Source: an uncultured Clostridia bacterium
Lineage (GTDB): Bacteria; Bacillota; Clostridia; Christensenellales; CAG-138
Length of the DNA: 64,000 nucleotides
NCBI GenBank assembly: GCA_937915925.1
Contig: CALGGM010000042.1
Location: forward strand, 21,791 to 85,790
Direction: 5' to 3'
Shown: positions 1,444 through 63,965 of the stretch, one piece after another
Numbering within the stretch: position 1 is the stretch's first letter
Layout of the letters: every line of letters starts with the position of its first letter
Position numbers and translations under genes: made by a program
The notes under the pieces: generated by a model
Seen by the model: only the letters and a program-made list of their open reading frames with translations
Databases searched by the model: none
Told to the model about the DNA's origin: nothing

Positions 1444-1471
1444 CATATCCCGCTGCATCCATGCATACAGT
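1443..1471 (+). promoter_or_regulatory. Sigma-E-type (mother-cell) promoter of the spoIIIA operon
   Basis: TCATATC, a 14-nt spacer, then CATACAGT. As I recall it, the B. subtilis sigma-E consensus is -35 kmATAww, ~14-nt spacer, -10 CATACAmT. It lies ~20 nt upstream of the spoIIIAA ATG. spoIIIA is sigma-E dependent in B. subtilis. Confidence 0.7.
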
Positions 1472-1491
1472 TGAAAACGGGAGGGACGAGC

Positions 1492-2415
1492 ATGGAGCAC
1501 TGGAAAAAGCAATGGACGGCGCTGATGCCGAAAAACGTCGCGGAGGTGCTGAACGGACTTTCCGACGACGCGCCGCTACTTGAGATCCGGCTTCGGCGCG
1601 ACGAACCGCTGGAGCTCGTGTTCGACGGAAGCGACCGCATCGTGTTCGGGAACAACGGCGCGCCGATGGTGACGGAGGAGGACCTGAAAAGCCTGACGTC
1701 CCGGCTTTCGGCATATTCGGCGTACGCGTGGGATCACGAACGTAGAAACGGATTTATCACCGTCGGCGGCTGCCGCGTCGGGCTTTCGGGACGGATGGTC
1801 CGCGCGGACGGAAACGTGCTCGGCTTTTCCACGGTCGCGGGCGTATGCATCCGCATCGTGCGGGAGGTCCGCGACTGCGCAAGACCGCTGCTTCCGCGGC
1901 TGTCGGATGGCGGAAGGCTTCTGTCAACGCTGCTCGTTTCGCCGCCGGGCTTCGGGAAAACGACGGTTCTGCGCGATCTGATCCGGATCGCGGCGGACGG
2001 GCTGCACGGCATCGACGCGTCGCGCGTAGGCGTTGCGGATGAGCGGTTCGAGCTGTCCGGCGACGCTTCGGGACAAAAGGCGTTCGATCTCGGTATGCGC
2101 ACCGACGTGATCTCCGGCGTCTCAAAGTCCGACGCGGCGGTGCGGATCGTGTCCACACTGTCGCCGCAGATCCTTGCGATGGATGAGCTGAACGACGCGC
2201 GGGACGCGGAGGCGATCACGGATGCGCGGGGAAAGGGCGTGACGGTGCTTGCCACCGCGCACGGCGCGTCGACGGAGGATCTTCGCCTGCGCCCGGCGAT
2301 CCGCACGCTTCTCTCGGAGCATGTGTTCCAAAGGATCGCGATCCTTCGCGGGATCGGAACGGGCGCGGACGTTTTCGATGCGGACGGCGAGCGCGTGGGC
2401 GGAGTGGACGCGTGA
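1492..2415 (+). CDS. spoIIIAA: Stage III sporulation protein AA (ATPase)
   Basis: Walker A motif SPPGFGKTT. It is the first gene of an 8-gene spoIIIA-ordered operon. I chose the ATG at 1492 (RBS GGGAGGGA) because the TTG at 1471 lies inside the predicted -10 box. Confidence 0.9.
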   Translation: MEHWKKQWTALMPKNVAEVLNGLSDDAPLLEIRLRRDEPLELVFDGSDRIVFGNNGAPMVTEEDLKSLTSRLSAYSAYAWDHERRNGFITVGGCRVGLSGRMVRADGNVLGFSTVAGVCIRIVREVRDCARPLLPRLSDGGRLLSTLLVSPPGFGKTTVLRDLIRIAADGLHGIDASRVGVADERFELSGDASGQKAFDLGMRTDVISGVSKSDAAVRIVSTLSPQILAMDELNDARDAEAITDARGKGVTVLATAHGASTEDLRLRPAIRTLLSEHVFQRIAILRGIGTGADVFDADGERVGGVDA

Positions 2416-2891
2416 GAGAGCTCGGGCTTGCCATGCTGTTCGGGCTGTGCTGCGCGGTCGGGATGCGGCTCGGCGCGCAGAAGACGGCAAGGCTCAAAAC
2501 CGTCCGTTCGCTGATCGACGGGCTTCGGCTGTTTCGCGAGCGCATCGGCGCGGGACAGGAGCGACTTTCCAAAATCGCGGCGGAGGACGGCGTACTGTTT
2601 GACTGCCTTCGAAGTTATCTCGACGCCTTGGAACGCGGACGGTCGGAGGCGGACGCCGCAAACGAAGCGATCGAATCGCTGAAAAGCAACAGCGCGGAGG
2701 CGACCGGCGTGCGCGCGTTTTTTTACGGGCTGTCCGAAACGTCGCGAAACGATCTTTTGCTCCGCGTTCAGGCGCTCGAATCGGCATTGGAACGGGCGGC
2801 GGAGGAGGCGGAGAGCGGCGCAAAGCAGGCGCGGGTGCTGCGGCTTTCCGGCGCGCTGGTCGGCGCGGGGTTGACGATTCTGTTACTGTAG
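2412..2891 (+). CDS. spoIIIAB: Stage III sporulation protein AB
   Basis: GTGA start/stop overlap with spoIIIAA. The N-terminal TM segment, size (~159 aa) and operon position fit SpoIIIAB. Confidence 0.8.
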   Translation: MRELGLAMLFGLCCAVGMRLGAQKTARLKTVRSLIDGLRLFRERIGAGQERLSKIAAEDGVLFDCLRSYLDALERGRSEADAANEAIESLKSNSAEATGVRAFFYGLSETSRNDLLLRVQALESALERAAEEAESGAKQARVLRLSGALVGAGLTILLL

Positions 2892-2898
2892 GTGGGAT

Positions 2899-3096
2899 AT
2901 GGACATCAATCTGCTATTCAAGATCGCGGGGATCGGCATTCTGGTTGCCGTGATCGTACAGCTGCTTCGTCAGAACGGACGGGAGGAGCTTGCGACCGTC
3001 GCGGCGATCGCGGGGCTGGTCCTTGCGACGATGCTTGTGCTCTCCATGATCGCGTCGCTCCTTGAGACGGTGCAGCGGACCTTCTCCCTGTACTGA
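2899..3096 (+). CDS. spoIIIAC: Stage III sporulation protein AC
   Basis: 65-aa two-TM protein, MDINLLFKIAGIGILVAVIVQLLRQNGREE..., typical of SpoIIIAC. Confidence 0.9.
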   Translation: MDINLLFKIAGIGILVAVIVQLLRQNGREELATVAAIAGLVLATMLVLSMIASLLETVQRTFSLY

Positions 3097-3097
3097 G

Positions 3098-3490
3098 ATG
3101 GGCAGGCTGTTTTTGATTGCGCTGATCGGTTCCGCCGCGGCGATCGAGCTGCGGGCGGTCCGGCAGGAATACGCGATCCTGATCGGAAGCGCGACGGCGG
3201 CGATCCTGCTCGTCGAGATTGTCTTCCATCTCACGGGACTGTCCGAAGCGTTCCGGAGGATGCTGGACGAATACGGCGTTTCCTCGGAAGCGTTCGGCGT
3301 GGTCCTGAAGATCCTCGGGATCGCGTATCTTACGGATCTAGGCGTGAACATCGCAAGGGACGCGGGACAGCAGGCGATCGCAGGCGCGCTGGAAACCGGA
3401 GGCAGGGTGCTGATTCTGTCGTGCGCGCTGCCTGCCGCGATCACGCTGCTGGAGACCGGCGTGTCGCTGATCCGGGGGACGGCGCAATGA
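3098..3490 (+). CDS. spoIIIAD: Stage III sporulation protein AD
   Basis: The ATG lies 1 nt after the spoIIIAC stop. It is a ~130-aa polytopic membrane protein with SpoIIIAC/AD-family similarity (LKILGIAYLTDLGVNIARDAG). Confidence 0.88.
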   Translation: MGRLFLIALIGSAAAIELRAVRQEYAILIGSATAAILLVEIVFHLTGLSEAFRRMLDEYGVSSEAFGVVLKILGIAYLTDLGVNIARDAGQQAIAGALETGGRVLILSCALPAAITLLETGVSLIRGTAQ

Positions 3491-4596
3491 AGCGGCTTGC
3501 ATTGTTTACGGTGATGCTGCTGACGCCGCTGCTGCTCTTTTCGGACTCGGACGAGGCGAGGGATGGGATCGACGCGCTGATCGGCACGGTCGATCTTTCG
3601 GAATGGGACGAATGGCTTTGCGAAACGGATTCCTATGACGGGATGCTGCCTTCGGAGTGGCTTCGGACGCTGTCGGGACTGAACGGGCTTCCGGCGGAGA
3701 CGGTCACGCTCGGCGCGATCGGGGAGAAGCTCTTACCGACGGCAAAGAGCGCGGCGGGCAAAATGGCGCTTCTGATGGGACTTGCCGTGCTCGGCGCTGC
3801 GGTGCAGGGCGTTTCGACCGCCTCCTCGATCGGGGAGGCGGCGCGGACGGCGTTTCGTATCACGGCATCCGGAATCGTGCTCGTGCTCGTGCTTCGCGAG
3901 ATCCGCACGGCGACCGATGCGATCGCGTCGATCGAACGCAGTGCGGAGGTGATCATGCCCGTGCTGACCGGATTTCTGATGCTCGGCGGGTTCGAGAACA
4001 CGGCGGGACTGCTTCCGATTTCGCAGGCGCTGCTATCCGACGTTGTGCTTCGTGTGATTGGCGACGTCGCGGTGCCTGCGTCGGTGCTCGGCGGAGTGCT
4101 GCTGACGCTGGACACGGACGGCACGGGGCGGCTCTGCGCGATCGGAAGGCTTTTACAGCGCGCGGGAAAATGGACGCTCGGCGCAGTGTGCTCCCTGTTT
4201 ATGCTGATCACGTCGATCCGCTCCGTCGCGGCGGTAAGCGCGGACGGATTGCTGCTGAAAACGACGCGGCTTGCGGCGGGCAGCATTCCGGCGGTCGGAC
4301 AGCTGTTGTCGGAATCGGTCGATACGGCGCTGCAATGCCTGAAGCTCGTCAAAAACGCGCTCGGTCTGACCGGATGCATCGTGATCCTGTCGGTCGCGGC
4401 AAGACCGATCGTCTCGGTCGCGGTGTGCAGAGCGGCGGTCCGCGCGTCGTCGCTGCTGTCCGAGCCGCTTGCGGGAAAGCCCTATGCGGACCTCTTACGC
4501 GGCATGGGAGACACGCTGCAGCTTCTGCTGCTTTCGGAACTTGCGTCGGCGGCGATGCTGCTGTTTCTGATCGCGCCCGCGCTGCTCCCGTCGTGA
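3487..4596 (+). CDS. spoIIIAE: Stage III sporulation protein AE
   Basis: ATGA overlap with spoIIIAD. It has a signal-like N-terminus, a soluble segment and then multiple TM helices. Size and position match SpoIIIAE. Confidence 0.88.
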   Translation: MKRLALFTVMLLTPLLLFSDSDEARDGIDALIGTVDLSEWDEWLCETDSYDGMLPSEWLRTLSGLNGLPAETVTLGAIGEKLLPTAKSAAGKMALLMGLAVLGAAVQGVSTASSIGEAARTAFRITASGIVLVLVLREIRTATDAIASIERSAEVIMPVLTGFLMLGGFENTAGLLPISQALLSDVVLRVIGDVAVPASVLGGVLLTLDTDGTGRLCAIGRLLQRAGKWTLGAVCSLFMLITSIRSVAAVSADGLLLKTTRLAAGSIPAVGQLLSESVDTALQCLKLVKNALGLTGCIVILSVAARPIVSVAVCRAAVRASSLLSEPLAGKPYADLLRGMGDTLQLLLLSELASAAMLLFLIAPALLPS

Positions 4597-4601
4597 CGCC
4601 T

Positions 4602-4769
4602 ATGGAACGGCTGATCCGCGCCTGCGTACTGCTCGGCGCTTACGGTCTGATCCTTGCAATGACGGAGTTTCTGCTGCCGGAGGCGGGCGTGAAACGAACG
4701 GCGAGGGCGGCGGTCGGACTGCTGTTTCTGAAACTGCTCGCCGAAGAGATGCTCGGCATATTCCGCTGA
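4602..4769 (+). CDS. spoIIIAF: Stage III sporulation protein AF, unusually short (two-TM N-terminal module only)
   Basis: The 55-aa product LIRACVLLGAYGLILAMTEFLLPEAGVKRTARAAVGLLFLKLL aligns by eye to the N-terminal TM hairpin of B. subtilis SpoIIIAF (..IVIDMLLPSSSMQKYAKMVVSLLLIVV..). Its position between AE and AG also fits. It stops 14 nt before spoIIIAG. Confidence 0.65.
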   Translation: MERLIRACVLLGAYGLILAMTEFLLPEAGVKRTARAAVGLLFLKLLAEEMLGIFR

Positions 4770-4782
4770 AGGGAGGACTATA

Positions 4783-5379
4783 ATGCAAAAGAAGGACGGC
4801 GGCGCGGTCGCGGCATGGTGGAAGGCGCGCGTCAAAAAGAACCCCGGACTTGCGTACGGCATTTATGCGGCGATCGGTCTTGCCGCCGTTCTCTTCTACC
4901 TCCTCGGCAGCGGCGTTCAATGCCGGACGAATGCGGCGGAGGCGCCGAAGGAAAGCGCTTCCGAAGCGAGACAGGCGGGGGAGCGCGACGCGCTTGAGCA
5001 AAGGCTGATCGAGGTGCTGTCAAAGATCCGCGGAGCGGGCAGGGTGGATGTGCTGGTGACGTACGAGACGAACGGGGAGATCGTCACGGCTACCGTACGG
5101 CAGACCGATGAGGACGTGCGGGATGCAAGCGGAACGGCAGGAAACGAGACCTCGCGATCCATGCGCGAGGTCACCGAGCCCGCGACGGTGGAGACCGACA
5201 GCGGACATGTACCGATCGTGCTGTACGAAAAGGAGCCGGTCGTGCGGGGCGTGATCGTGGTGGCGGAGGGCGCGTCGGATTTTTCGGTCCGGCAGAAGCT
5301 CCAGTCCGCCGTGCATGCGGCGACCGGCATTCCGATCGAGCGGATCGAAGTGTTTGAAATGTCTTATGACGGATCATAA
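4783..5379 (+). CDS. spoIIIAG: Stage III sporulation protein AG
   Basis: RBS GGGAGG. N-terminal TM segment. The C-terminal block VRGVIVVAEGASDFSVRQKLQSAVHAATGIPIERIEVFEM is typical of SpoIIIAG. Confidence 0.9.
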   Translation: MQKKDGGAVAAWWKARVKKNPGLAYGIYAAIGLAAVLFYLLGSGVQCRTNAAEAPKESASEARQAGERDALEQRLIEVLSKIRGAGRVDVLVTYETNGEIVTATVRQTDEDVRDASGTAGNETSRSMREVTEPATVETDSGHVPIVLYEKEPVVRGVIVVAEGASDFSVRQKLQSAVHAATGIPIERIEVFEMSYDGS

Positions 5380-5402
5380 ATACATCATGCAGGAGGGATC
5401 AT

Positions 5403-5942
5403 ATGAAAGAACTGATTCGACGCTACGGAAAATGGCTGAACAAACGCGTGCTGACGGCTGTCGGGCTTTGCCTGCTGCTCGCCGCGGCGGTGCTCACGAA
5501 CATTCTGGTCAACAAGGGAAAGACGGACACGGCGGAGACCGGCGCGAACAGGACGGAATCGGTCACGCAGGTATCCGCGCAGAGCGGTTCTATGGACGCA
5601 AACTTCTTCGCGTCGTATCGTGAGGAGCGGGACAACGTTCGCACGCAGGAGCTTGCGTATCTCGACGCGATCGTTTCGCAGGGCGCGGACGCGGAGACGC
5701 TGTCCGATGCGCAGCAGCAGAAGCTGGAACTGGTGAACGCGATGGAAACGGAGCTGACGGTCGAAAACCTCGTCCGCGCAAAGGGCTTCGACGACGTGAT
5801 CGTTTCGATCCACAAGGGAAACATCAACGTCGTGGTCGGTGCGGACGCGCTGAACGACGAGCAGGTCGCGCAGATTTTGGACATCGTACTGCGCGAGACG
5901 GGAAAGAGCGCGGAGAACGTCAAGATCAGCACGACGCTGTAA
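5403..5942 (+). CDS. spoIIIAH: Stage III sporulation protein AH
   Basis: N-terminal TM segment, FFASYREERDNVRTQE block and a C-terminal YscJ/FliF-like domain. It is the last gene of the operon. Confidence 0.88.
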   Translation: MKELIRRYGKWLNKRVLTAVGLCLLLAAAVLTNILVNKGKTDTAETGANRTESVTQVSAQSGSMDANFFASYREERDNVRTQELAYLDAIVSQGADAETLSDAQQQKLELVNAMETELTVENLVRAKGFDDVIVSIHKGNINVVVGADALNDEQVAQILDIVLRETGKSAENVKISTTL

Positions 5943-6035: not shown

Positions 6036-6449
6036 ATGAGCGAATATAAGGATATTACCATCGAATCCGAAGAGAACGGCGGAAAAGTAGTTTTCGCAGA
6101 AGACGTCGTCGCAACGATCGCAACGCTGGCTGCCGCGGAGGTGGAAGGCGTATACGGAATGAGCGGTTCCGCGTTTGAAGGGATCGGCGAAAAGCTCGGC
6201 AAAAAGAATTATACCAAGGGCATCAAGGTCGAGGTCGGCTCCGTCGAGTGCGCGGTCGACATGAACATCATCGTGCGTTACGGCTTCCGCATTCAGGAGG
6301 TCTGCCACAACGTGCAGGAGTCCGTCAAGAACGCTATCGAGACGATGACGGGTCTCAAGGTCGTTCAGGTCAATATCGTCGTCAGCTCGATCGTTTTCGC
6401 AAAGGAAACGCCGGTCGAGCCGCCGAAGCCCGAAAACCGCGTCAAGTGA
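6036..6449 (+). CDS. Asp23/Gls24 family alkaline-shock/envelope stress protein
   Basis: VVFAEDVVATIATLAAAEVEGVYGM and the VVSSI..-type C-terminus are typical of Asp23. RBS GGGAGG. Confidence 0.9.
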   Translation: MSEYKDITIESEENGGKVVFAEDVVATIATLAAAEVEGVYGMSGSAFEGIGEKLGKKNYTKGIKVEVGSVECAVDMNIIVRYGFRIQEVCHNVQESVKNAIETMTGLKVVQVNIVVSSIVFAKETPVEPPKPENRVK

Positions 6450-6513: not shown

Positions 6514-7059
6514 ATGAAGCGAACAGTCGGGATCCTTTCCGGGATTCTTGCGTTTTTCGCGCTGGTATTCGGCGCCGTTCTGATCCTGATCGTGATCGGA
6601 TGGCCGATCTCCGAGGCGCAGCTTGCGGCATTGGCGGCGCAGACGCACCGCATGCCCGGCGCGTTGATCCTTCTTCTTGTCGCCTTTGTGTGTATCGCGA
6701 TCGGCATTGTGGTATTGTACGGTATGATAGGACGGCATCTGAATCGCAGAACGACGGCGCTGCTGGAAAAGAACGCGCTCGGCGAGACCGCCGTTTCGTT
6801 CTCCGCGCTGAAGGAGATCGCGGAGCGCACGGTGAAATCGCGCTGCGACGTCGGGTCCTGCAAAACGAAGGTGCATGCGCTCGGCAACAGCGTGCGCATC
6901 GATGTGCGCGTCGTGACGGCTCCGACGGTTTCCCTTCTGGAGCTGACGCATACGCTGCAGGACATGATCCGCGACGCGATCCTGACGCTTTGCGGAACGG
7001 AGGTCGCAGTTGTCGACGTGACCGTCGACCAGACGGAAGCGCCGTCGAAAAGAGCTTAA
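6514..7059 (+). CDS. amaP: Alkaline shock response membrane anchor protein AmaP
   Basis: Two N-terminal TM helices plus a soluble C-terminal domain. The gene is adjacent to asp23 and a DUF2273 gene, which is the classic asp23 operon composition. Confidence 0.75.
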   Translation: MKRTVGILSGILAFFALVFGAVLILIVIGWPISEAQLAALAAQTHRMPGALILLLVAFVCIAIGIVVLYGMIGRHLNRRTTALLEKNALGETAVSFSALKEIAERTVKSRCDVGSCKTKVHALGNSVRIDVRVVTAPTVSLLELTHTLQDMIRDAILTLCGTEVAVVDVTVDQTEAPSKRA

Positions 7060-16589: not shown

Positions 16590-17786
16590 ATGAAACGGAT
16601 TCTTCGTGCCGTGACCGCGGTTGCGGCGTTTCTTTTGTTGGGATGGTATGCGCTGCCGCAGGTCTATACAGCGCTGCATTTGCCGGATCGCGTATTCTCG
16701 GAGCCAGCGGTCTCTGCGCCGATGCTCTCGATGCGTCAAAGCGATGCGGCGCCGGTGCGCGGCTCGGACGATGAGCGCCTGCACCGCGCGGCAAGCGGGT
16801 CCGCGTCGGTCTCGCTGTTCGGCGTTCTGCCGCTCAAAACCGTTTCGGTGTCGGCGCATACAAAAACGGTTATGCTCGGCGGCGAAGCGGTCGGCGTCGT
16901 GCTGAAAACCGAGGGCGTACAGATCGTGGGCTTCGAGCGGGTCGAAACAGCGTGGGGCAGCGTCAGCCCCGCCGTGAGCGCAGGTCTACGGGAGGGCGAC
17001 ATGATTTGCGCGCTGAACGGACAGGCGGTCTCCGATTCCGACTCATTCGCCGCGCTCTGTGCTAAGTCGGACGGAACGTGCGTGCTGTCGTGCCTAAGGG
17101 ACGGGGAACCGTTTACGGCGTCCGTCGACCTTGCGATTGATCGGAACGGCGAGAAGCGAATCGGCGCGTGGGTGCGCGACAGCACGTCCGGGATCGGAAC
17201 GCTGTCGTTTTACGATCCGAGCTCGCGCGTTTATGCGGCGCTCGGACACGGCGTAACGGACGTCGATACGCAAAAGCTGATCGCGCCGGCGAAGGGCTTT
17301 CTGACGGAAGCCGAGATCCTTCGCATCCGAAAGGGCGATCATGAGACGGCGGGGGAGCTCGTCGGGCATTTTTCGGTGAACGCGAAGGACGCTGTCGCCA
17401 CGGTCGACCGCAATACCGAGCTCGGCATTTCCGGCACGCTCGGCGCATTTTCGGACGGGCAGGGGCGAACGGTCGAGATCGCGCCGGGCGACGCCGCGCA
17501 CAGAGGCGAAGCATACATTGTTTCGACGGTCGACGGCGAGACGAGGGCGTACGCCGTGCAGGTGATCCGCGTGGACGTGCAGTCCTCGCCGCAGACGCAG
17601 GGCATGATGATCGAGATCACGGATCCCGCGCTGCTTGAAAAGACCGGCGGCATCGTGCAGGGCATGAGTGGAAGTCCGCTTCTGCAGGACGGGCGACTCA
17701 TCGGCGTCGTCACGCATGTGTTCTTGAGCCACCCGACGCGCGGTTACTGCCTGTACGCGGAGTGGATGGCGGACGCGCTTCTTTGA
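16590..17786 (+). CDS. spoIVB: SpoIVB peptidase (S55)
   Basis: Signal-anchor N-terminus, PDZ-like segment (GLREGDMICALNG) and a GMSGSPL serine motif. The position downstream of recN matches Bacillus. Confidence 0.92.
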   Translation: MKRILRAVTAVAAFLLLGWYALPQVYTALHLPDRVFSEPAVSAPMLSMRQSDAAPVRGSDDERLHRAASGSASVSLFGVLPLKTVSVSAHTKTVMLGGEAVGVVLKTEGVQIVGFERVETAWGSVSPAVSAGLREGDMICALNGQAVSDSDSFAALCAKSDGTCVLSCLRDGEPFTASVDLAIDRNGEKRIGAWVRDSTSGIGTLSFYDPSSRVYAALGHGVTDVDTQKLIAPAKGFLTEAEILRIRKGDHETAGELVGHFSVNAKDAVATVDRNTELGISGTLGAFSDGQGRTVEIAPGDAAHRGEAYIVSTVDGETRAYAVQVIRVDVQSSPQTQGMMIEITDPALLEKTGGIVQGMSGSPLLQDGRLIGVVTHVFLSHPTRGYCLYAEWMADALL

Positions 17787-17874
17787 CTGTTCACAATTTC
17801 ACCGAGGGCGGTTACAGAATCCGGTAGACATTGCCGACCTTTTTCGGGAGAATACGGTCGAAAAGGAGAGGGAC

Positions 17875-18588
17875 ATGCGAATTCTGCTGCTGACCGCCGA
17901 CAAGATCATCACACACACCTTTTTGACCGCTTCGGAACGGATCGGCGATACGGAGCTTGTTCCGCTGACGCGGACGGAGCAGGCGTTGGAACGGCTGTTT
18001 CGCGAGCCGTTTGACGCGCTGATTACGGATCAATTCGGTATTCTGCATCCGCGCTTTTTTGAGCGTCCGATCCTGTGGCCCGAGCTGATCTTTCTTCTGC
18101 TCGGGAAATCCGGGATCCGTCTGCTGCCGAAAGCCGTGACGCACTGCTTTTCGTCCTCCGACGATCCGGAAGCGATCCTGCGCGCAGTCCGCTCCTTTTC
18201 CGGAGGACGGATGCGAAGGAACGATACGGACCTGACGGTATCGAGGCTTTTACAGCGGCTCGGTACGCCGGTCTCCCTGAACGGATTCGACTATCTCAGG
18301 GACGCGATCCTGTTGATCCTTTCGCATAACTGCATCACGGACGTTCGTCTGCTTGCCGATATCTACGGGGTGATTGCCGCGGTATACGGCGTCCGCATGA
18401 GCGCTGTCGAGCATGCCATGCGACAGGCGATCGACGCGGCGTGGGGACGCGGCGACGCGCAGACGATCGACTCATTTTTCGGCGATACGGTACATTCGGA
18501 ACGCGCCGCACCGTCCAATGCGGCGTTTCTGTTTCGGATCGCGGATCAAATACAAGTCGGATTAAGGGGGAGAACACATGTCGATTGA
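17875..18588 (+). CDS. Spo0A-like regulator: degenerate receiver-like N-terminal domain + Spo0A_C DNA-binding domain
   Basis: The C-terminal half aligns by eye to the B. subtilis Spo0A effector domain (GFDYLRDAI, SAVEHAMRQAIDAAWGRGD, PSNAAFLFRIADQI). The N-terminal ~120 aa have a REC-like layout but keep only some of the conserved residues (see finding). RBS AAGGAG. It sits in the syntenic spo0A slot after spoIVB. Confidence 0.75.
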   Translation: MRILLLTADKIITHTFLTASERIGDTELVPLTRTEQALERLFREPFDALITDQFGILHPRFFERPILWPELIFLLLGKSGIRLLPKAVTHCFSSSDDPEAILRAVRSFSGGRMRRNDTDLTVSRLLQRLGTPVSLNGFDYLRDAILLILSHNCITDVRLLADIYGVIAAVYGVRMSAVEHAMRQAIDAAWGRGDAQTIDSFFGDTVHSERAAPSNAAFLFRIADQIQVGLRGRTHVD

Positions 18589-19060
18589 AGAAATGGAACA
18601 AATGGAAGAGGAACTTCGCGCGATCTATCCGGACGAGGACTCGCTGCTGAACGGGACGATCAACACGATCATGCTTACGCTCGGCGTTCCGGCAAAACTC
18701 TTGGGGTATCGGTACATCTTTCTTGCCGTACGGTTCATCCGGACCAGACCGCCGCAGCTCCGTTCCACAACGAAAAAAGAACTGTATCCGTATCTTGCCG
18801 AAGTCTCCGGCTCGACGAAGCCCATGATCGAGCGGACGATGCGCTATGCGATCGCGCAGGCGTGGCGGCGTGCGGATCCGGATATTCTGTATTCCTATCT
18901 CGGTCTTCGCGGAAAGAACCTCAAGGATCCGCCCACAAACATCGAGTACGTGTATCTGATCGCGGAACGTGTGCGTCTGATCATCGGCGATCCTTTGTGG
19001 GAGGAGCATTATCAGCGGGTCATGGCGGGACTTCGAAACCGGTATGCTTGGTTAAATTGA
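18578..19060 (+). CDS. Receiver-less Spo0A_C domain protein
   Basis: 160 aa: a short acidic leader followed by a full Spo0A_C-like domain (GVPAKLLGYRYIFLAV, PMIERTMRYAIAQAWRR, PTNIEYVYLIAERV). Strong RBS GGGGGAG. It overlaps the upstream stop by 11 nt. Confidence 0.75.
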   Translation: MSIEEMEQMEEELRAIYPDEDSLLNGTINTIMLTLGVPAKLLGYRYIFLAVRFIRTRPPQLRSTTKKELYPYLAEVSGSTKPMIERTMRYAIAQAWRRADPDILYSYLGLRGKNLKDPPTNIEYVYLIAERVRLIIGDPLWEEHYQRVMAGLRNRYAWLN

Positions 19061-19120: not shown

Positions 19121-20296
19121 ATGAAAAAAAGAGCAATCCTGATCGTTCTCGACAGCGCGGGGATCGGGTATCTGCCGGACGCTGCGGACTTCGGCGACGT
19201 AGGGGCAAACACCATTTGCAACATTTATGAGAAGCGCGGACGTCTCGACGTTCCGAACATGCTGAGACTGGGTCTTTCGCACATCGACGGCTGCCGTCTT
19301 CCGAAGGCGGACGGCGAGCTGATCGGAAGCTACTGTAAGTGCGCGGAGCAAACGCACGCAAAGGACACGACCTGCGGACATTGGGAGATGGCGGGTCTCG
19401 CGCTCGACGAGCCGTTCAAGACCTATCCGAACGGATTCCCGAAGGCGTTCATGGACGCGTTCGAACAGCGCATCGGCAGAGGCACGCTCGGCAATATCGT
19501 CGCGAGCGGCACGCAGATCATTCAGGAGCTCGGTGACGAGCATGTGCGCACCGGCAAGCCGATCGTCTACACCAGCGCGGACAGCGTGTTCCAGATCGCG
19601 GCGCACGAGGAGGTCATTCCGCTTCCGGAACTATACCGCATCTGCGAGATCGCGCGCGAAATGCTGACCGGCGAATATTTGGTCGGTCGCGTGATCGCAA
19701 GACCGTTCCTCGGCAGCAGCGGCGCGTATAACCGTACCGAAAACCGCAAGGACTACGCGGTCGAACCGTTCAAGGCTACGATCCTCGACGCGCTTGCCGG
19801 TAAGGGCATGGACGTCGTGGGCATCGGCAAGATCGAGGATATTTTCTGCCACAGAGGCATCACGACCGTCGATCACACCAAGAACAATCCGGACGGCATC
19901 AAGGCGACGCAGCGGTTCTTGGACGAAGGGACAGGGGATTTCATCTTTACGAACCTTGTCGACACCGATATGCTTTACGGTCACCGCAACGACTGGGAGG
20001 GCTACGGGAAAGCGCTCGAATATTTCGACGCGCATCTGCCCGAGATGTACCTTTCCATGCGAGAGGGCGACATTCTGATGATCACGGCGGACCACGGCTG
20101 CGATCCGACGTTCCCCGGAACGGATCACACGCGCGAATACATTCCGCTTCTGATCTGCGGTCAACACATCAAGCACGGCGTAAACCTCGGCATTCGCAGA
20201 CAGTTTTCCGACATCGGCGCGACGGTCTATGAATATCTGACCGGCGAGACGTGGCGTGAGGGCGAATCATTCTTAAAGGATATCTGGGAGGACTGA
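19121..20296 (+). CDS. deoB: Phosphopentomutase
   Basis: MKKRAILIVLDSAGIGYLPDA..., TSADSVFQIAAHEE and the ITADHGCDPT block. Confidence 0.95.
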   Translation: MKKRAILIVLDSAGIGYLPDAADFGDVGANTICNIYEKRGRLDVPNMLRLGLSHIDGCRLPKADGELIGSYCKCAEQTHAKDTTCGHWEMAGLALDEPFKTYPNGFPKAFMDAFEQRIGRGTLGNIVASGTQIIQELGDEHVRTGKPIVYTSADSVFQIAAHEEVIPLPELYRICEIAREMLTGEYLVGRVIARPFLGSSGAYNRTENRKDYAVEPFKATILDALAGKGMDVVGIGKIEDIFCHRGITTVDHTKNNPDGIKATQRFLDEGTGDFIFTNLVDTDMLYGHRNDWEGYGKALEYFDAHLPEMYLSMREGDILMITADHGCDPTFPGTDHTREYIPLLICGQHIKHGVNLGIRRQFSDIGATVYEYLTGETWREGESFLKDIWED

Positions 20297-21182: not shown

Positions 21183-22070
21183 TTATTTCTTTTCGGTCTG
21201 TTCCGGTTCTTCGTCGTCGAAGTTGAATGCGCTCGACGGCATCGACGGACCGTGTACCTGTTCTTCTCTTGCCTTCTGCAGCTTTTCCTTATCGGTAAAC
21301 TTGCGCGTGACGATGAACAGCACGACAAGCGCCGCAACGGCGAGACCGAGGAAGACGTAGTTTAAGATCTGCAGCACGGTCGGGTCCGTGATCTCATAGA
21401 GCTTGGAGATAAACGAACCGTCGTTCGCGTCGGAACGGACATTGCCGGGGCTGGACACCCAAACGGAGTGTCCTTTTTCGAGATCCGCTTCGGTCATCGG
21501 ATAGACGGGTTCGCCCGCGTCGTCGATGAGATCGGTCTGCTCATAATACTTCGAGTAGTCCACGGAACCGCCCATGCAGCTCATCATGCCGCCGCTGGAG
21601 AGAGGGAACTTTTCCCGATCCTCGGAGTAGGCGTTGTAAGCCTTGTTGATGAACGCCGAGATCTCCTCGATCTCCATCTTTTGATTGTCGACGGAGTACG
21701 GACCGTAGGTAATCTCCTGACCTGTGGATGCAGACCCGAGACAGGACATGCCGCCCGACGCCGCTGCGGTCGTCGTGTAGGTCAGTTCGCCGTCCTCGAG
21801 CAGATCGGCGAAGGTCGTCTTATACGCATCGGTGACGCGATAATACGTGAGCTTGCCGGAATACAGGGCGGTCTGAACGCCGCTCGTCAGCGCCGTGATC
21901 AGCATGATGACGGCAAGCGCGATATAGATCAGCCGAAGAGCTTTCTTTGCCTTCGGGATCGATTCGTCCTTGAAGTTCTCCATGGAGAAAAGTCTTCCGC
22001 TGCCCTTGATTGCGCCGACCAGAACATAGATGCCCGCTGCGAGCAGAAAGATCGGTAATAAGAATCCCAT
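21183..22070 (-). CDS. Hypothetical bitopic membrane protein (two N-terminal TM helices, ~190-aa ectodomain, C-terminal TM and an acidic tail)
   Basis: It lies 30 nt downstream of the cysS stop on the same strand. I recognise no family. The motif SGGMSCLG / SGGMMSCMGG occurs twice. Confidence 0.6.
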   Translation of the reverse strand: MGFLLPIFLLAAGIYVLVGAIKGSGRLFSMENFKDESIPKAKKALRLIYIALAVIMLITALTSGVQTALYSGKLTYYRVTDAYKTTFADLLEDGELTYTTTAAASGGMSCLGSASTGQEITYGPYSVDNQKMEIEEISAFINKAYNAYSEDREKFPLSSGGMMSCMGGSVDYSKYYEQTDLIDDAGEPVYPMTEADLEKGHSVWVSSPGNVRSDANDGSFISKLYEITDPTVLQILNYVFLGLAVAALVVLFIVTRKFTDKEKLQKAREEQVHGPSMPSSAFNFDDEEPEQTEKK

Positions 22071-42958: not shown

Positions 42959-42964
42959 GCATAA

Positions 42965-43200
42965 AAAGGCTTTGAAAAAGAGGAGTACGCGCTTTTGCCG
43001 TCAGAGATCCGTTCCATGGCTGAAAGAACGGTCGGAGATAAAACGCGGAAGGTCGCTTTTGAGCCGATGCGGCGAACGGAGTAACCGCATCCGGTCGCCC
43101 CGTTATCGGCTCAGAGAGAAACGGATTCTTTCCGTTTAACAAAGGTGGTACCGCGAACGCTCACTTCGTCCTTTGACGGAGTGAGCGTATTGATTTTAAA
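42965..43200 (+). promoter_or_regulatory. T-box riboswitch leader (tRNA-Val-sensing, inferred) with terminator/antiterminator
   Basis: The conserved T-box sequence AAAGGTGGTACCGCG lies at 43141-43155. It overlaps the 5' arm of the terminator acgctcacttcgt / acggagtgagcgt, which is followed by ATTGATTTT. An AGAGA element lies in the 5' part of the leader. Confidence 0.88.
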
Positions 43201-46497: not shown

Positions 46498-46574
46498 CGG
46501 GGTGTAGCGCAGTCCGGTAGCGCACGTGCTTTGGGAGCATGGGGCCGGAGGTTCAAATCCTCTCACCCCGACCA
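46498..46574 (+). tRNA. tRNA-Pro (TGG)
   Basis: Manual cloverleaf: acceptor cggggtg/caccccg, anticodon loop tTTGGga, T-loop ttcaaat, CCA encoded. Confidence 0.93.
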
Positions 46575-46590
46575 AAACGGCTTGATGCGT

Positions 46591-46665
46591 GGTCCCGTGG
46601 TCAAGTGGTTAAGACACCGCCCTTTCACGGCGGCTACAGGAGTTCGAATCTCCTCGGGATCACCA
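46591..46665 (+). tRNA. tRNA-Glu (TTC)
   Basis: Acceptor ggtcccg/cgggatc (one G-U pair), anticodon loop cTTTCac, T-loop ttcgaat, CCA encoded. Confidence 0.93.
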
Positions 46666-46683
46666 TTTTCCTTCAGGAAACAA

Positions 46684-46760
46684 GGGCCTTTAGCTCAGTT
46701 GGTCAGAGCGGTCGGCTCATAACCGATTGGTCCGGGGTTCAAGTCCCTGAAGGCCCACCA
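46684..46760 (+). tRNA. tRNA with CAT anticodon (elongator Met, or Ile2 if lysidine-modified)
   Basis: Acceptor gggcctt/aaggccc with a paired 1:72, anticodon loop cTCATaa and no GGG/CCC anticodon stem. It is therefore not an initiator. Confidence 0.9.
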
Positions 46761-46765
46761 AGAGT

Positions 46766-46842
46766 GGCCCGGTAGTTCAGTTGGTTAGAATGCCAGCCTG
46801 TCACGCTGGAGGTCAGGGGTTCGAGCCCCCTTCGGGTCGCCA
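46766..46842 (+). tRNA. tRNA-Asp (GTC)
   Basis: Anticodon arm ccagc-cTGTCac-gctgg, T-loop ttcgagc, discriminator G, CCA encoded. Confidence 0.93.
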
Positions 46843-46850
46843 CTTTTTCT

Positions 46851-46925
46851 GCCGGCGTAGCTCAATGGCAGAGCAACTGATTTGTAATCAGTAGGTTGTT
46901 GGTTCGACTCCGATCGCCGGCTCCA
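46851..46925 (+). tRNA. tRNA-Thr (TGT)
   Basis: Acceptor gccggcg/cgccggc, anticodon arm actga-tTTGTaa-tcagt, CCA encoded. Confidence 0.93.
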
Positions 46926-46958
46926 ACACGACTTTGATAACTGAATACGGTATTTCGT

Positions 46959-47043
<85 letters not shown>

Positions 47044-47049
47044 CAATAC

Positions 47050-47136
47050 GCGGGAATGGCGGAATTGGCAGACGCGCACGGTTCAGGTCCGTGTGAAAGC
47101 AATTTCATGCAGGTTCAAGTCCTGTTTCCCGCACCA
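47050..47136 (+). tRNA. tRNA-Leu (CAG), long variable arm
   Basis: Acceptor gcgggaa/ttcccgc, anticodon arm cacgg-tTCAGgt-ccgtg, class II variable arm, CCA encoded. Confidence 0.93.
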
Positions 47137-63872: not shown

Positions 63873-63965
63873 TGGCGCGGAAAGTGGGATTTGAACCCAC
63901 GCACGGCTTCAGACCGTCTACTCCCTTAGCAGGGGAGCCCCTTATAGCCACTTGGGTATTTCCGC
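63873..63965 (-). tRNA. tRNA-Ser (GCT), long variable arm
   Basis: On the minus strand: acceptor gcggaaa/tttccgc, anticodon arm ctccc-cTGCTaa-gggag, class II variable arm, T-loop ttcaaat, discriminator G, CCA encoded. Confidence 0.93.

Follow-up and report, generated by a model that had tools for sequence, protein, structure and literature searches.

Here we describe a stretch of 64,000 nucleotides (nt) from an uncultured Clostridia bacterium of the Christensenellales (GenBank assembly GCA_937915925.1, contig CALGGM010000042.1, positions 21,791 to 85,790), called the window throughout. Behind spoIVB, in the slot of the sporulation regulator gene spo0A, the window carries two overlapping open reading frames (ORFs), A and B, each with a Spo0A-type DNA-binding domain. 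The N-terminal half of ORF A is a receiver fold whose catalytic signature has been lost, and ORF B has no receiver at all. A and B are the products of one old tandem spo0A duplication and still stand in the slot after spoIVB; in related genomes they are always adjacent, and are coupled or fused. On balance we favour the reading that the two proteins function jointly, as a single two-headed transcription factor of the Spo0A type that arose from this duplication. The pair is most likely the sporulation master regulator of the organism, because the spoIIIA operon and spoIVB are kept.

Two Spo0A-type effector domains in the spo0A slot

spoIVB is a conserved upstream marker of the spo0A slot and precedes the A-B pair at all related loci. 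In the window the two ORFs overlap by 11 nt, with the ORF B ATG standing 11 nt ahead of the ORF A stop, and a strong ribosome-binding site (RBS), AAGGGGGAG, lies before ORF B (Table 1). An initial annotation of this DNA had described two overlapping Spo0A_C genes after spoIVB with such an RBS. The coordinates, the overlap and all the motifs that it quoted are present in the sequence, and the Pfam domain Spo0A_C (PF08769) matches both proteins over its full length, at E 6e-23 for A and E 5e-22 for B. The Spo0A_C domains of A and B share approximately 26% identity. Against the Spo0A equivalog model TIGR02875 (cut-off 200 bits), both proteins score below the cut-off, A with 83.5 bits and B with 69.7 bits. 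No further Spo0A-like sequence was found besides ORFs A and B in the 64 kb window.

The recognition helix is altered in A (SAVEHAMRQAIDAAW) and in B (PMIERTMRYAIAQAW) when compared to the normally invariant helix of canonical Spo0A (SRVERAIRHAIEVAW), as the initial annotation had already noticed. Conservation of the DNA-contacting residues of the canonical helix extends from Bacillus to C. difficile. E213, R214 and R217 are the three residues reported to take part in base contacts, numbered as for structure 1LQ1. In the A lineage the helix reads xxEHA[M/I]RHAI, with His at the R214 position and the equivalents of E213 and R217 kept. This change from R214 to His is older than the decay of the receiver. 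In the B lineage the Arg equivalent to R214 is invariant, the E213 position varies, R217 is replaced by His or remains Arg, and Tyr stands at H218. The E-R..R pattern that had been read in ORF B is thus true of the window, but only its R214-equivalent Arg holds across the B family. The helix changes of A and B differ and are partly complementary, which would fit two unlike half-sites and is no proof of them. By receiver chemistry, equivalog score and recognition helix, A and B stand outside canonical Spo0A; by descent they are Spo0A derivatives.

ORF B is composed of an acidic leader of about 20-27 amino acids (aa), the Spo0A_C domain and a C-terminal extension, with no receiver. In the B family alignment three residues of the extension, G137, D138 and E142, are invariant. 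The extension is helical in the AlphaFold2 model of a fused A-B protein, and it may be an interaction element. A comparable tail is found in the second gene of the outgroup pair described below (L044, about 6940-7056), and canonical Spo0A has none. A protein-cluster representative identical to ORF B is on record.

A receiver fold without its catalytic signature

There is no Pfam Response_reg match in ORF A, even at E<=1, and the catalytic columns are degenerate; this profile search had been proposed by the initial annotation as the check for an intact receiver. The receiver-like layout which it saw in the N-terminal part is borne out by structure prediction. The AlphaFold2 model of ORF A, built on 25 family members, has a predicted local distance difference test score (pLDDT) of 85.7 and a predicted template modelling score (pTM) of 0.77. 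Its order is beta1-alpha1-beta2-alpha2-beta3, two short turns for helix 3, beta4, beta5-alpha5 and then the helical effector domain, so that the five strands stand in receiver order and helix 4 is missing. A Foldseek search against the PDB matched the N-terminal half with the receivers of FleR, MtrA, PhoP and RR468 (template modelling score, TM, 0.66-0.73; 12-20% identity), and the C-terminal half with the Spo0A effector structures 1FC3 and 1LQ1 (TM 0.79-0.87).

The catalytic positions were read from an alignment with canonical Spo0A. The acceptor column holds D52, in agreement with the earlier statement that an acceptor Asp is kept. The PxxDG loop (beta3-alpha3) behind it is deleted, with a loss of 6 residues. 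The conserved Thr/Ser column is Leu, as had been read by eye. The Lys column was likewise correctly given as Ser for the window, but it is not fixed: A relatives have S, K, Q, N, R, D, F or I at this position, and since residues vary in this way across the family the column is unconstrained. The acidic pair, described before as AD in place of DD, is indeed incomplete, although the register taken by eye was one off. MAFFT and hhalign both align T7-A8 of ORF A with canonical D10-D11, D9 falling in the next column, and hhalign confirms the beta1-beta3 register of the alignment.

The acceptor column differs among A relatives, with Glu in L005 and L012, Asn in L042 and apparently Thr in L034, where the register is uncertain because an Asp stands directly after the gap. 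Most A proteins keep an acidic residue there, within a conserved FDAL(I/L)xD motif, and T7 and D9 of the beta1-alpha1 loop are conserved as well. A could for this reason be a working though unorthodox phospho-receiver, in which D52, with D9 near, is phosphorylated by an orphan kinase and B is recruited by phosphorylated A. The Asp found at the acceptor column in most A proteins, the conserved motif, T7 and D9, and an outgroup gene 1 that looks phosphorylatable would all be expected from such a protein. We nevertheless give this explanation little credence, in view of Thr/Ser and Lys columns that are lost or unconstrained, the deleted PxxDG loop, the missing helix 4, the Glu, Asn and apparent Thr replacements just mentioned and the lack of any Response_reg signal at the threshold used.

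A comparison of the A N-terminal domain with canonical Spo0A receivers by hhalign is weak (E 0.007, probability 5%) and spans beta1 to beta3 only. The homology of this domain to receivers is therefore based on the fold match and on the intermediate outgroup gene 1, and not on the direct profile-profile comparison. A single-sequence search with the domain retrieved only 11 clusters among 1.84 billion representative proteins. These are A-type proteins (221-242 aa), fused proteins (385-393 aa) or fragments, and nothing else.

Distribution, coupling and fusion in relatives

Homologues form 34 clusters for A and 44 for B, with metagenomes and metagenome-assembled genomes (MAGs) as their sources. 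The few that are named carry the annotation “Spo0A C-terminal domain-containing protein”. The order recN-spoIVB-A-B-deoB-PNP is present in at least 19 GTDB species, which answers the question, raised by the initial annotation, of whether the pair is conserved after spoIVB in related genomes. All these species are uncultured rumen or gut Clostridia, some of them labelled Christensenellales. Pattern scans for A-type and B-type genes gave one locus per genome, and no second A-type or B-type locus in any clade genome.

At 15 of the 16 split loci examined, B starts 4, 11, 19 or 23 nt within the end of A, with a GGAGG-type RBS. At the remaining one, L022, the B start is not cleanly resolved. Elsewhere A and B are fused as a single ORF of 392-397 aa (L001-L004, L007, L015 and L018, plus 8 protein clusters). 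One fused protein was recovered from 15 contigs of independent samples, so the fusion is no sequencing artefact. Mixing fused, A-only and B-only proteins gave a misaligned alignment, and a fused-only alignment was used. In a neighbour-joining tree of Spo0A_C domains the fused forms are spread over three distinct branches. Following the logic of the Rosetta-stone criterion, genes A and B that are separate in some genomes occur fused in related ones, in at least three branches.

A different picture is seen at L043 (MAG RUG13539, 3577-6005), with a SpoIVB that is 51% identical. Here spoIVB abuts deoB and the slot is empty. No match to the A-type or B-type pattern was found anywhere in this MAG.

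Origin by duplication and stepwise receiver loss

With the clade SpoIVB as probe, we found a graded series of loci. Oscillospiraceae outgroups have one canonical spo0A after spoIVB, with an effector domain approximately 60% identical to that of B. subtilis (Response_reg 76 bits, Spo0A_C 158 bits). In about 13 Christensenellales-like rumen species (L044-L049, L122-L131, L163) two genes are present. Gene 1, of 259-263 aa, still matches Response_reg with 36-41 bits and Spo0A_C with about 100; its motifs DLELPGIDG and FLKPLD retain the acceptor Asp and the Lys, respectively, and the A-type helix AEHAMRHAI is already present. Gene 2, of 265-274 aa, overlaps gene 1 at an ATGA and has no Response_reg match and a Spo0A_C score of 66 bits. 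Its N-terminus aligns to receivers from the acceptor position via the KP of beta5 as far as helix 5 (hhalign E 1e-4).

The locus L042 is intermediate between this outgroup and the core clade. Its gene 1 has Asn as acceptor and its gene 2 is receiver-less, with 129 aa; neither matches Response_reg, and Spo0A_C scores are about 80 each. In the core clade, including the window, A and B have no Response_reg match and Spo0A_C scores of 81 and 78 bits. In the neighbour-joining tree the gene 1/A lineage is sister to the gene 2/B lineage, and canonical Spo0A stands apart. The ancestor of the rumen/gut Christensenellales-like lineage had a coupled pair, whose gene 1 gave rise to A and whose gene 2 gave rise to B. 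On the way, the already decayed receiver of gene 2 was lost to give B, and the receiver of gene 1 lost its catalytic signature to give the pseudo-receiver of A.

The initial annotation had also considered that the canonical gene may have moved elsewhere. This option is weakened, for by position and by phylogeny A descends from the spo0A of the same slot, and in that sense nothing has moved. A related alternative is that a canonical, phosphorylatable spo0A located elsewhere runs sporulation, with A and B as accessory paralogs, acting as modulators or competitors at 0A boxes or serving another regulon, and free to diverge. In its favour, two to three spo0A copies occur in approximately 10% of Spo0A-positive genomes, a second Spo0A of C. 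thermocellum serves a role of its own, and Lachnospiraceae such as Eisenbergiella tayi carry stand-alone Spo0A_C proteins alongside other genes. The empty slot of L043, which does have spoIVB, also agrees with it, and the negative result for a canonical spo0A covers the slot and the 64 kb window, not whole MAGs. The stepwise series in one and the same slot, with A as its spo0A descendant, argues in the other direction. So do the outgroups, whose only detected spo0A lies in the slot or a few kb 3' of spoIVB, and the clade genomes, which have no second A- or B-type locus, as the window has no other Spo0A-like sequence. We consider accessory paralogs an unlikely explanation, and the one among the alternatives that deserves the most attention.

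It has also been considered that B was acquired from a phage with a truncated spo0A and that B manipulates host sporulation. Gut phages do carry Spo0A_C-only homologues, and A and B each match two PHROG families of no known function. The best phage records are only 31-39% identical to B, no closer than canonical Spo0A. B groups in the tree with gene 2 of the outgroup, which retains a receiver remnant, so B is not phage-derived; in every species it has a chromosomal housekeeping context. A phage origin has next to no probability and is effectively refuted by the tree, the phage identities and the receiver remnant of gene 2.

Other arrangements of Spo0A-type genes were seen in the same searches. 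The Oscillospiraceae MAG RGIG2756 (L095, 5110-6960) has two full-length REC+Spo0A_C genes in tandem behind spoIVB, apparently a separate pair. Of these two copies the second is the more diverged (Spo0A_C 104 bits vs 158), and both score on Response_reg. L130 (2875-3744), from a related MAG, is arranged differently, with a gene-1-like Spo0A that has an IEHAMRHAI helix and a receiver with Asp and Lys, and with neither a second Spo0A_C gene nor spoIVB or deoB inside 3 kb. Lachnospiraceae have Spo0A_C proteins that stand alone, 126-178 aa long, at L164 (2818-3339, Eisenbergiella tayi DSM 26961), L138-L162 and L166.

Selection and retained sporulation genes

The ratio of nonsynonymous to synonymous substitution rates (dN/dS) was obtained by the Nei-Gojobori method for close species pairs, seven within the clade and two including the window. 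In the seven clade pairs, values are 0.04-0.07 for B, 0.04-0.09 for recN, 0.02-0.06 for deoB, 0.10-0.22 for spoIVB and 0.18-0.32 for A. The two window pairs have higher values for most genes, with 0.13-0.18 for B and 0.31-0.45 for A. The two domains of A have similar dN/dS. Both A and B are under purifying selection, B at a level close to that of recN and deoB.

In terms of sporulation genes, the window keeps spoIIIAA, AB, AC, AD, AE and AH, together with a spoIVB above its equivalog cut-off. These observations bear on the possibility that sporulation is lost or being lost, and that A and B are remnants of spo0A controlling something unrelated to sporulation, as in many asporogenous Clostridia. 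Spo0A is kept in 40 non-spore-formers, sometimes in a highly degraded form, and cultured Christensenella species are described as non-spore-forming; the fast evolution of A and its decayed receiver could be read in the same way. This possibility appears improbable to us, given a near-complete spoIIIA operon, a spoIVB that scores as an equivalog and has dN/dS of 0.10-0.22, and a B constrained like housekeeping genes. It would also leave the repeated fusion and conserved coupling of A and B unexplained.

Proposed mode of action

In canonical Spo0A the receiver holds the protein inactive, and a phosphorylation-dependent dimer binds DNA (PMC3485338). The isolated Spo0A DNA-binding domain binds legitimate targets without phosphorylation (PMC3485338).

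For the two-headed factor that we favour, we infer a heteromer, a composite operator and activity free of phosphorylation. A and B would form the heteromer as separate proteins, or a single chain where they are fused. Carrying two different Spo0A DNA-binding domains, they would recognise a composite operator, the two half-sites of which would differ from each other and both be related to the 0A box. Such pairing, encoded in the genome, would take the place of the phosphorylation-driven dimerisation of canonical Spo0A, and if the overlapping start couples translation, A and B would be made in roughly equal amounts. The activity of the pair might then be set by expression level or by a binder of the pseudo-receiver, and not by His-Asp phosphotransfer. 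The pseudo-receiver itself would be kept for some other purpose, e.g. contact with B, with a ligand or with a partner protein. The initial annotation had suggested a non-canonical entry control, either phosphorylation-independent or heteromeric. The fusion and coupling, the stepwise receiver decay, the purifying selection and the kept sporulation genes all support this suggestion, while the function itself is a proposal.

A wider form of the proposal is that a whole rumen/gut Christensenellales-like lineage that keeps its sporulation genes has no phosphorylatable Spo0A. It would use a heterodimer or single chain with a pseudo-receiver, its entry into sporulation would be uncoupled from His-Asp phosphotransfer, and the operator would be composite and non-classical. 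We regard this wider form as conceivable but somewhat doubtful.

Several points weigh against the two-headed factor, apart from the accessory-paralog explanation discussed above. With the acidic acceptor residue and the FDAL(I/L)xD motif kept in most A proteins, a role of A through phosphorylation, or as a phosphomimetic, is possible. The AlphaFold2 model of the fused protein P0003 has good domains and a pTM of 0.36, at which the packing of A against B is not readable. The L043 locus, where spoIVB is intact and the slot is empty, implies that the slot is dispensable in some lineage. A evolves fast, with 37-51% identity to the window compared to approximately 80% for recN, so a relaxed or changing role would also fit. 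Finally, support for a 0A-like operator is weak, and in the window it comes from a single box with one mismatch.

Region upstream of ORF A

That box is a heptamer, GGTCGAA, which resembles the 0A box TGTCGAA and lies in the spacer between spoIVB and ORF A, just 3' of a promoter-like element (Table 1). The promoter-like element falls on the block GGTAGAtTt...cAGAAT, which 21 related loci have in common, and a CG(A/G)A core is conserved across the clade at the position of the heptamer. Upstream of A in related species, exact 0A-like boxes occur at 1.6/kb vs 0.15/kb in the background, a weak enrichment. A TTCGaCA-like element recurs at about -70 upstream of A in roughly 9 of 21 related species.

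Locus and other features of the window

The coordinates of the features in the spo0A slot and its surroundings are collected in Table 1.

Table 1. Features of the window, with positions counted from its first nucleotide.
Feature	Positions	Strand	Length	Evidence or remark
spoIIIA operon: AA, AB, AC, AD, AE, an unassigned 198-aa ORF, AH	1471..5942	+		Pfam matches
spoIVB (S55 signalling peptidase)	16590..17786	+		Pfam Peptidase_S55 E 1e-70; TIGR02860 325.7 bits, cut-off 305
Promoter-like element TAGACA-17 nt-GAGAAT, spoIVB-A spacer	17825..17853	+		Consensus scan
0A-box-like heptamer GGTCGAA, just 3' of the -10 element	17856..17862	+		One mismatch; weak
ORF A: pseudo-receiver + Spo0A_C, in-place spo0A descendant, gene 1 lineage	17875..18588	+	237 aa	
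ORF A pseudo-receiver domain, residues 1-115	17875..18219	+		Alignment, AlphaFold2 model, Foldseek
ORF A Spo0A_C DNA-binding domain, residues 122-226	18238..18552	+		Pfam; PDB profile matches 1LQ1, 1FC3 at E 7e-26; alignment
RBS of ORF B (AAGGGGGAG), within the 3' end of ORF A	18564..18572	+		Sequence
ORF B: receiver-less Spo0A_C protein, gene 2 lineage	18578..19060	+	160 aa	
ORF B Spo0A_C domain, residues 28-131	18659..18970	+		Pfam, family alignment
ORF B C-terminal extension, residues 132-160	18971..19057	+		Family alignment
deoB-like phosphopentomutase, downstream neighbour	19121..20296	+		Pfam Metalloenzyme; ~90% identity across clade

The third-position guanine-cytosine (GC) content is 0.69 for A and 0.66 for B, somewhat lower than the 0.72-0.84 of neighbouring genes. 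After the near-complete spoIIIA operon there is an Asp23-family gene at 6036-6449. A conserved ORF of 285-295 aa, with no Pfam match and a hydrophobic N-terminus, follows the PNP gene on the minus strand, in the window (21183-22070) and at the same position in the related locus L001 (13307-14164). Further downstream, a T-box leader (127.6 bits) at 42963-43176 on the plus strand is ahead of an ORF of approximately 2.9 kb on the same strand, which presumably encodes an aminoacyl-tRNA synthetase. A long minus-strand ORF in the T-box region has the codon-position GC pattern typical of a shadow frame. Eight transfer RNA (tRNA) genes form a cluster at 46498-47133 on the plus strand, and another tRNA gene is located at 63876-63965 on the minus strand.

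Relation to known systems

Spo0A paralogs, receiver-less Spo0A of phages and pseudo-receivers in other families are already known. In the literature searched we found no description of two Spo0A effector domains, coupled or fused and with decayed receivers, that occupy the spo0A slot where sporulation genes have been retained by the lineage. For the initial annotation, membership of the pair in a widespread and already studied family of paralogs, together with a canonical spo0A elsewhere, would have counted against its proposal; Spo0A paralogs and Spo0A_C proteins without a receiver are known, but the A-B pair is undescribed in that literature.

When compared to canonical Spo0A of B. subtilis and C. 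difficile, the pair has the same effector family and fold and the same slot, and sporulation genes are kept. It differs in having two effector domains, on separate genes or within a fused one, and in a receiver that is decayed in A and absent in B.

Regulators with a pseudo-receiver include HP1043 of H. pylori, ChxR of Chlamydia and GlnR of actinobacteria, in which the receiver fold is kept and the phosphorylation residues are lost. The pseudo-receiver of such proteins is thought to be a constitutive dimerisation or regulatory module. ORF A is like them in keeping the receiver fold with one or more of the phosphorylation residues replaced. These regulators have other effector families (mostly OmpR/PhoB) and are homodimers. 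We know of none that is paired with a receiver-less paralog, and none that is a Spo0A.

Phages of the human gut carry truncated spo0A homologues with the Spo0A_C domain only (PMC10294663). B is receiver-less like these, with the same proposed consequence of DNA binding without host phosphorylation signals. Unlike them, it is chromosomal, vertically inherited, coupled or fused to A, and derived from a full-length gene 2. The engineered Spo0A DNA-binding domain is a functional analogue of B, being an isolated domain for which no phosphorylation is needed (PMC3485338). That domain is a laboratory construct with the native helix, whereas B is natural and conserved, its helix is altered, and its domain is flanked by an acidic leader and a C-terminal extension.

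Duplicated spo0A genes are also found elsewhere among the Clostridia. Two copies are present in 10 of 118 Clostridiales genomes (Galperin et al. 2022 preprint); the paralog of C. thermocellum is Clo1313_0637. The L095 pair is even in tandem after spoIVB. In contrast to this pair, the one that was inspected, the A-B slot is without a canonical copy, its copies are coupled or fused, and receiver function is lost in both. Lachnospiraceae stand-alone Spo0A_C proteins have a VEHAIRHAI helix, so the A lineage shares with them the change of R214 to His, and B shares their short receiver-less form. They differ from A and B in that they are not beside spoIVB, are unpaired and are 25-40% identical to A.

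Significance

To our knowledge, sporulation starts via phosphorylation of one canonical Spo0A in every experimentally studied spore-former. If the bacteria described here do sporulate via a coupled or fused pair with a dead receiver, they would be a natural counter-example to this rule. Living genomes would then show, in successive stages, how in a response regulator pairing encoded in the genome can take over from dimerisation driven by a signal. Outgroup, L042 and core clade form a series that includes split as well as fused proteins, and they offer ready material on the links between Spo0A dimerisation, receiver inhibition and operator choice.

There would be a consequence for genome surveys too, where REC + Spo0A_C is used as a marker of sporulation ability. 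Surveys which need a full-length Spo0A match (e.g. TIGR02875) would miss these rumen taxa, and those which take any Spo0A_C match would count them as having an ordinary Spo0A. These bacteria may enter spore formation without the usual phosphate signal.

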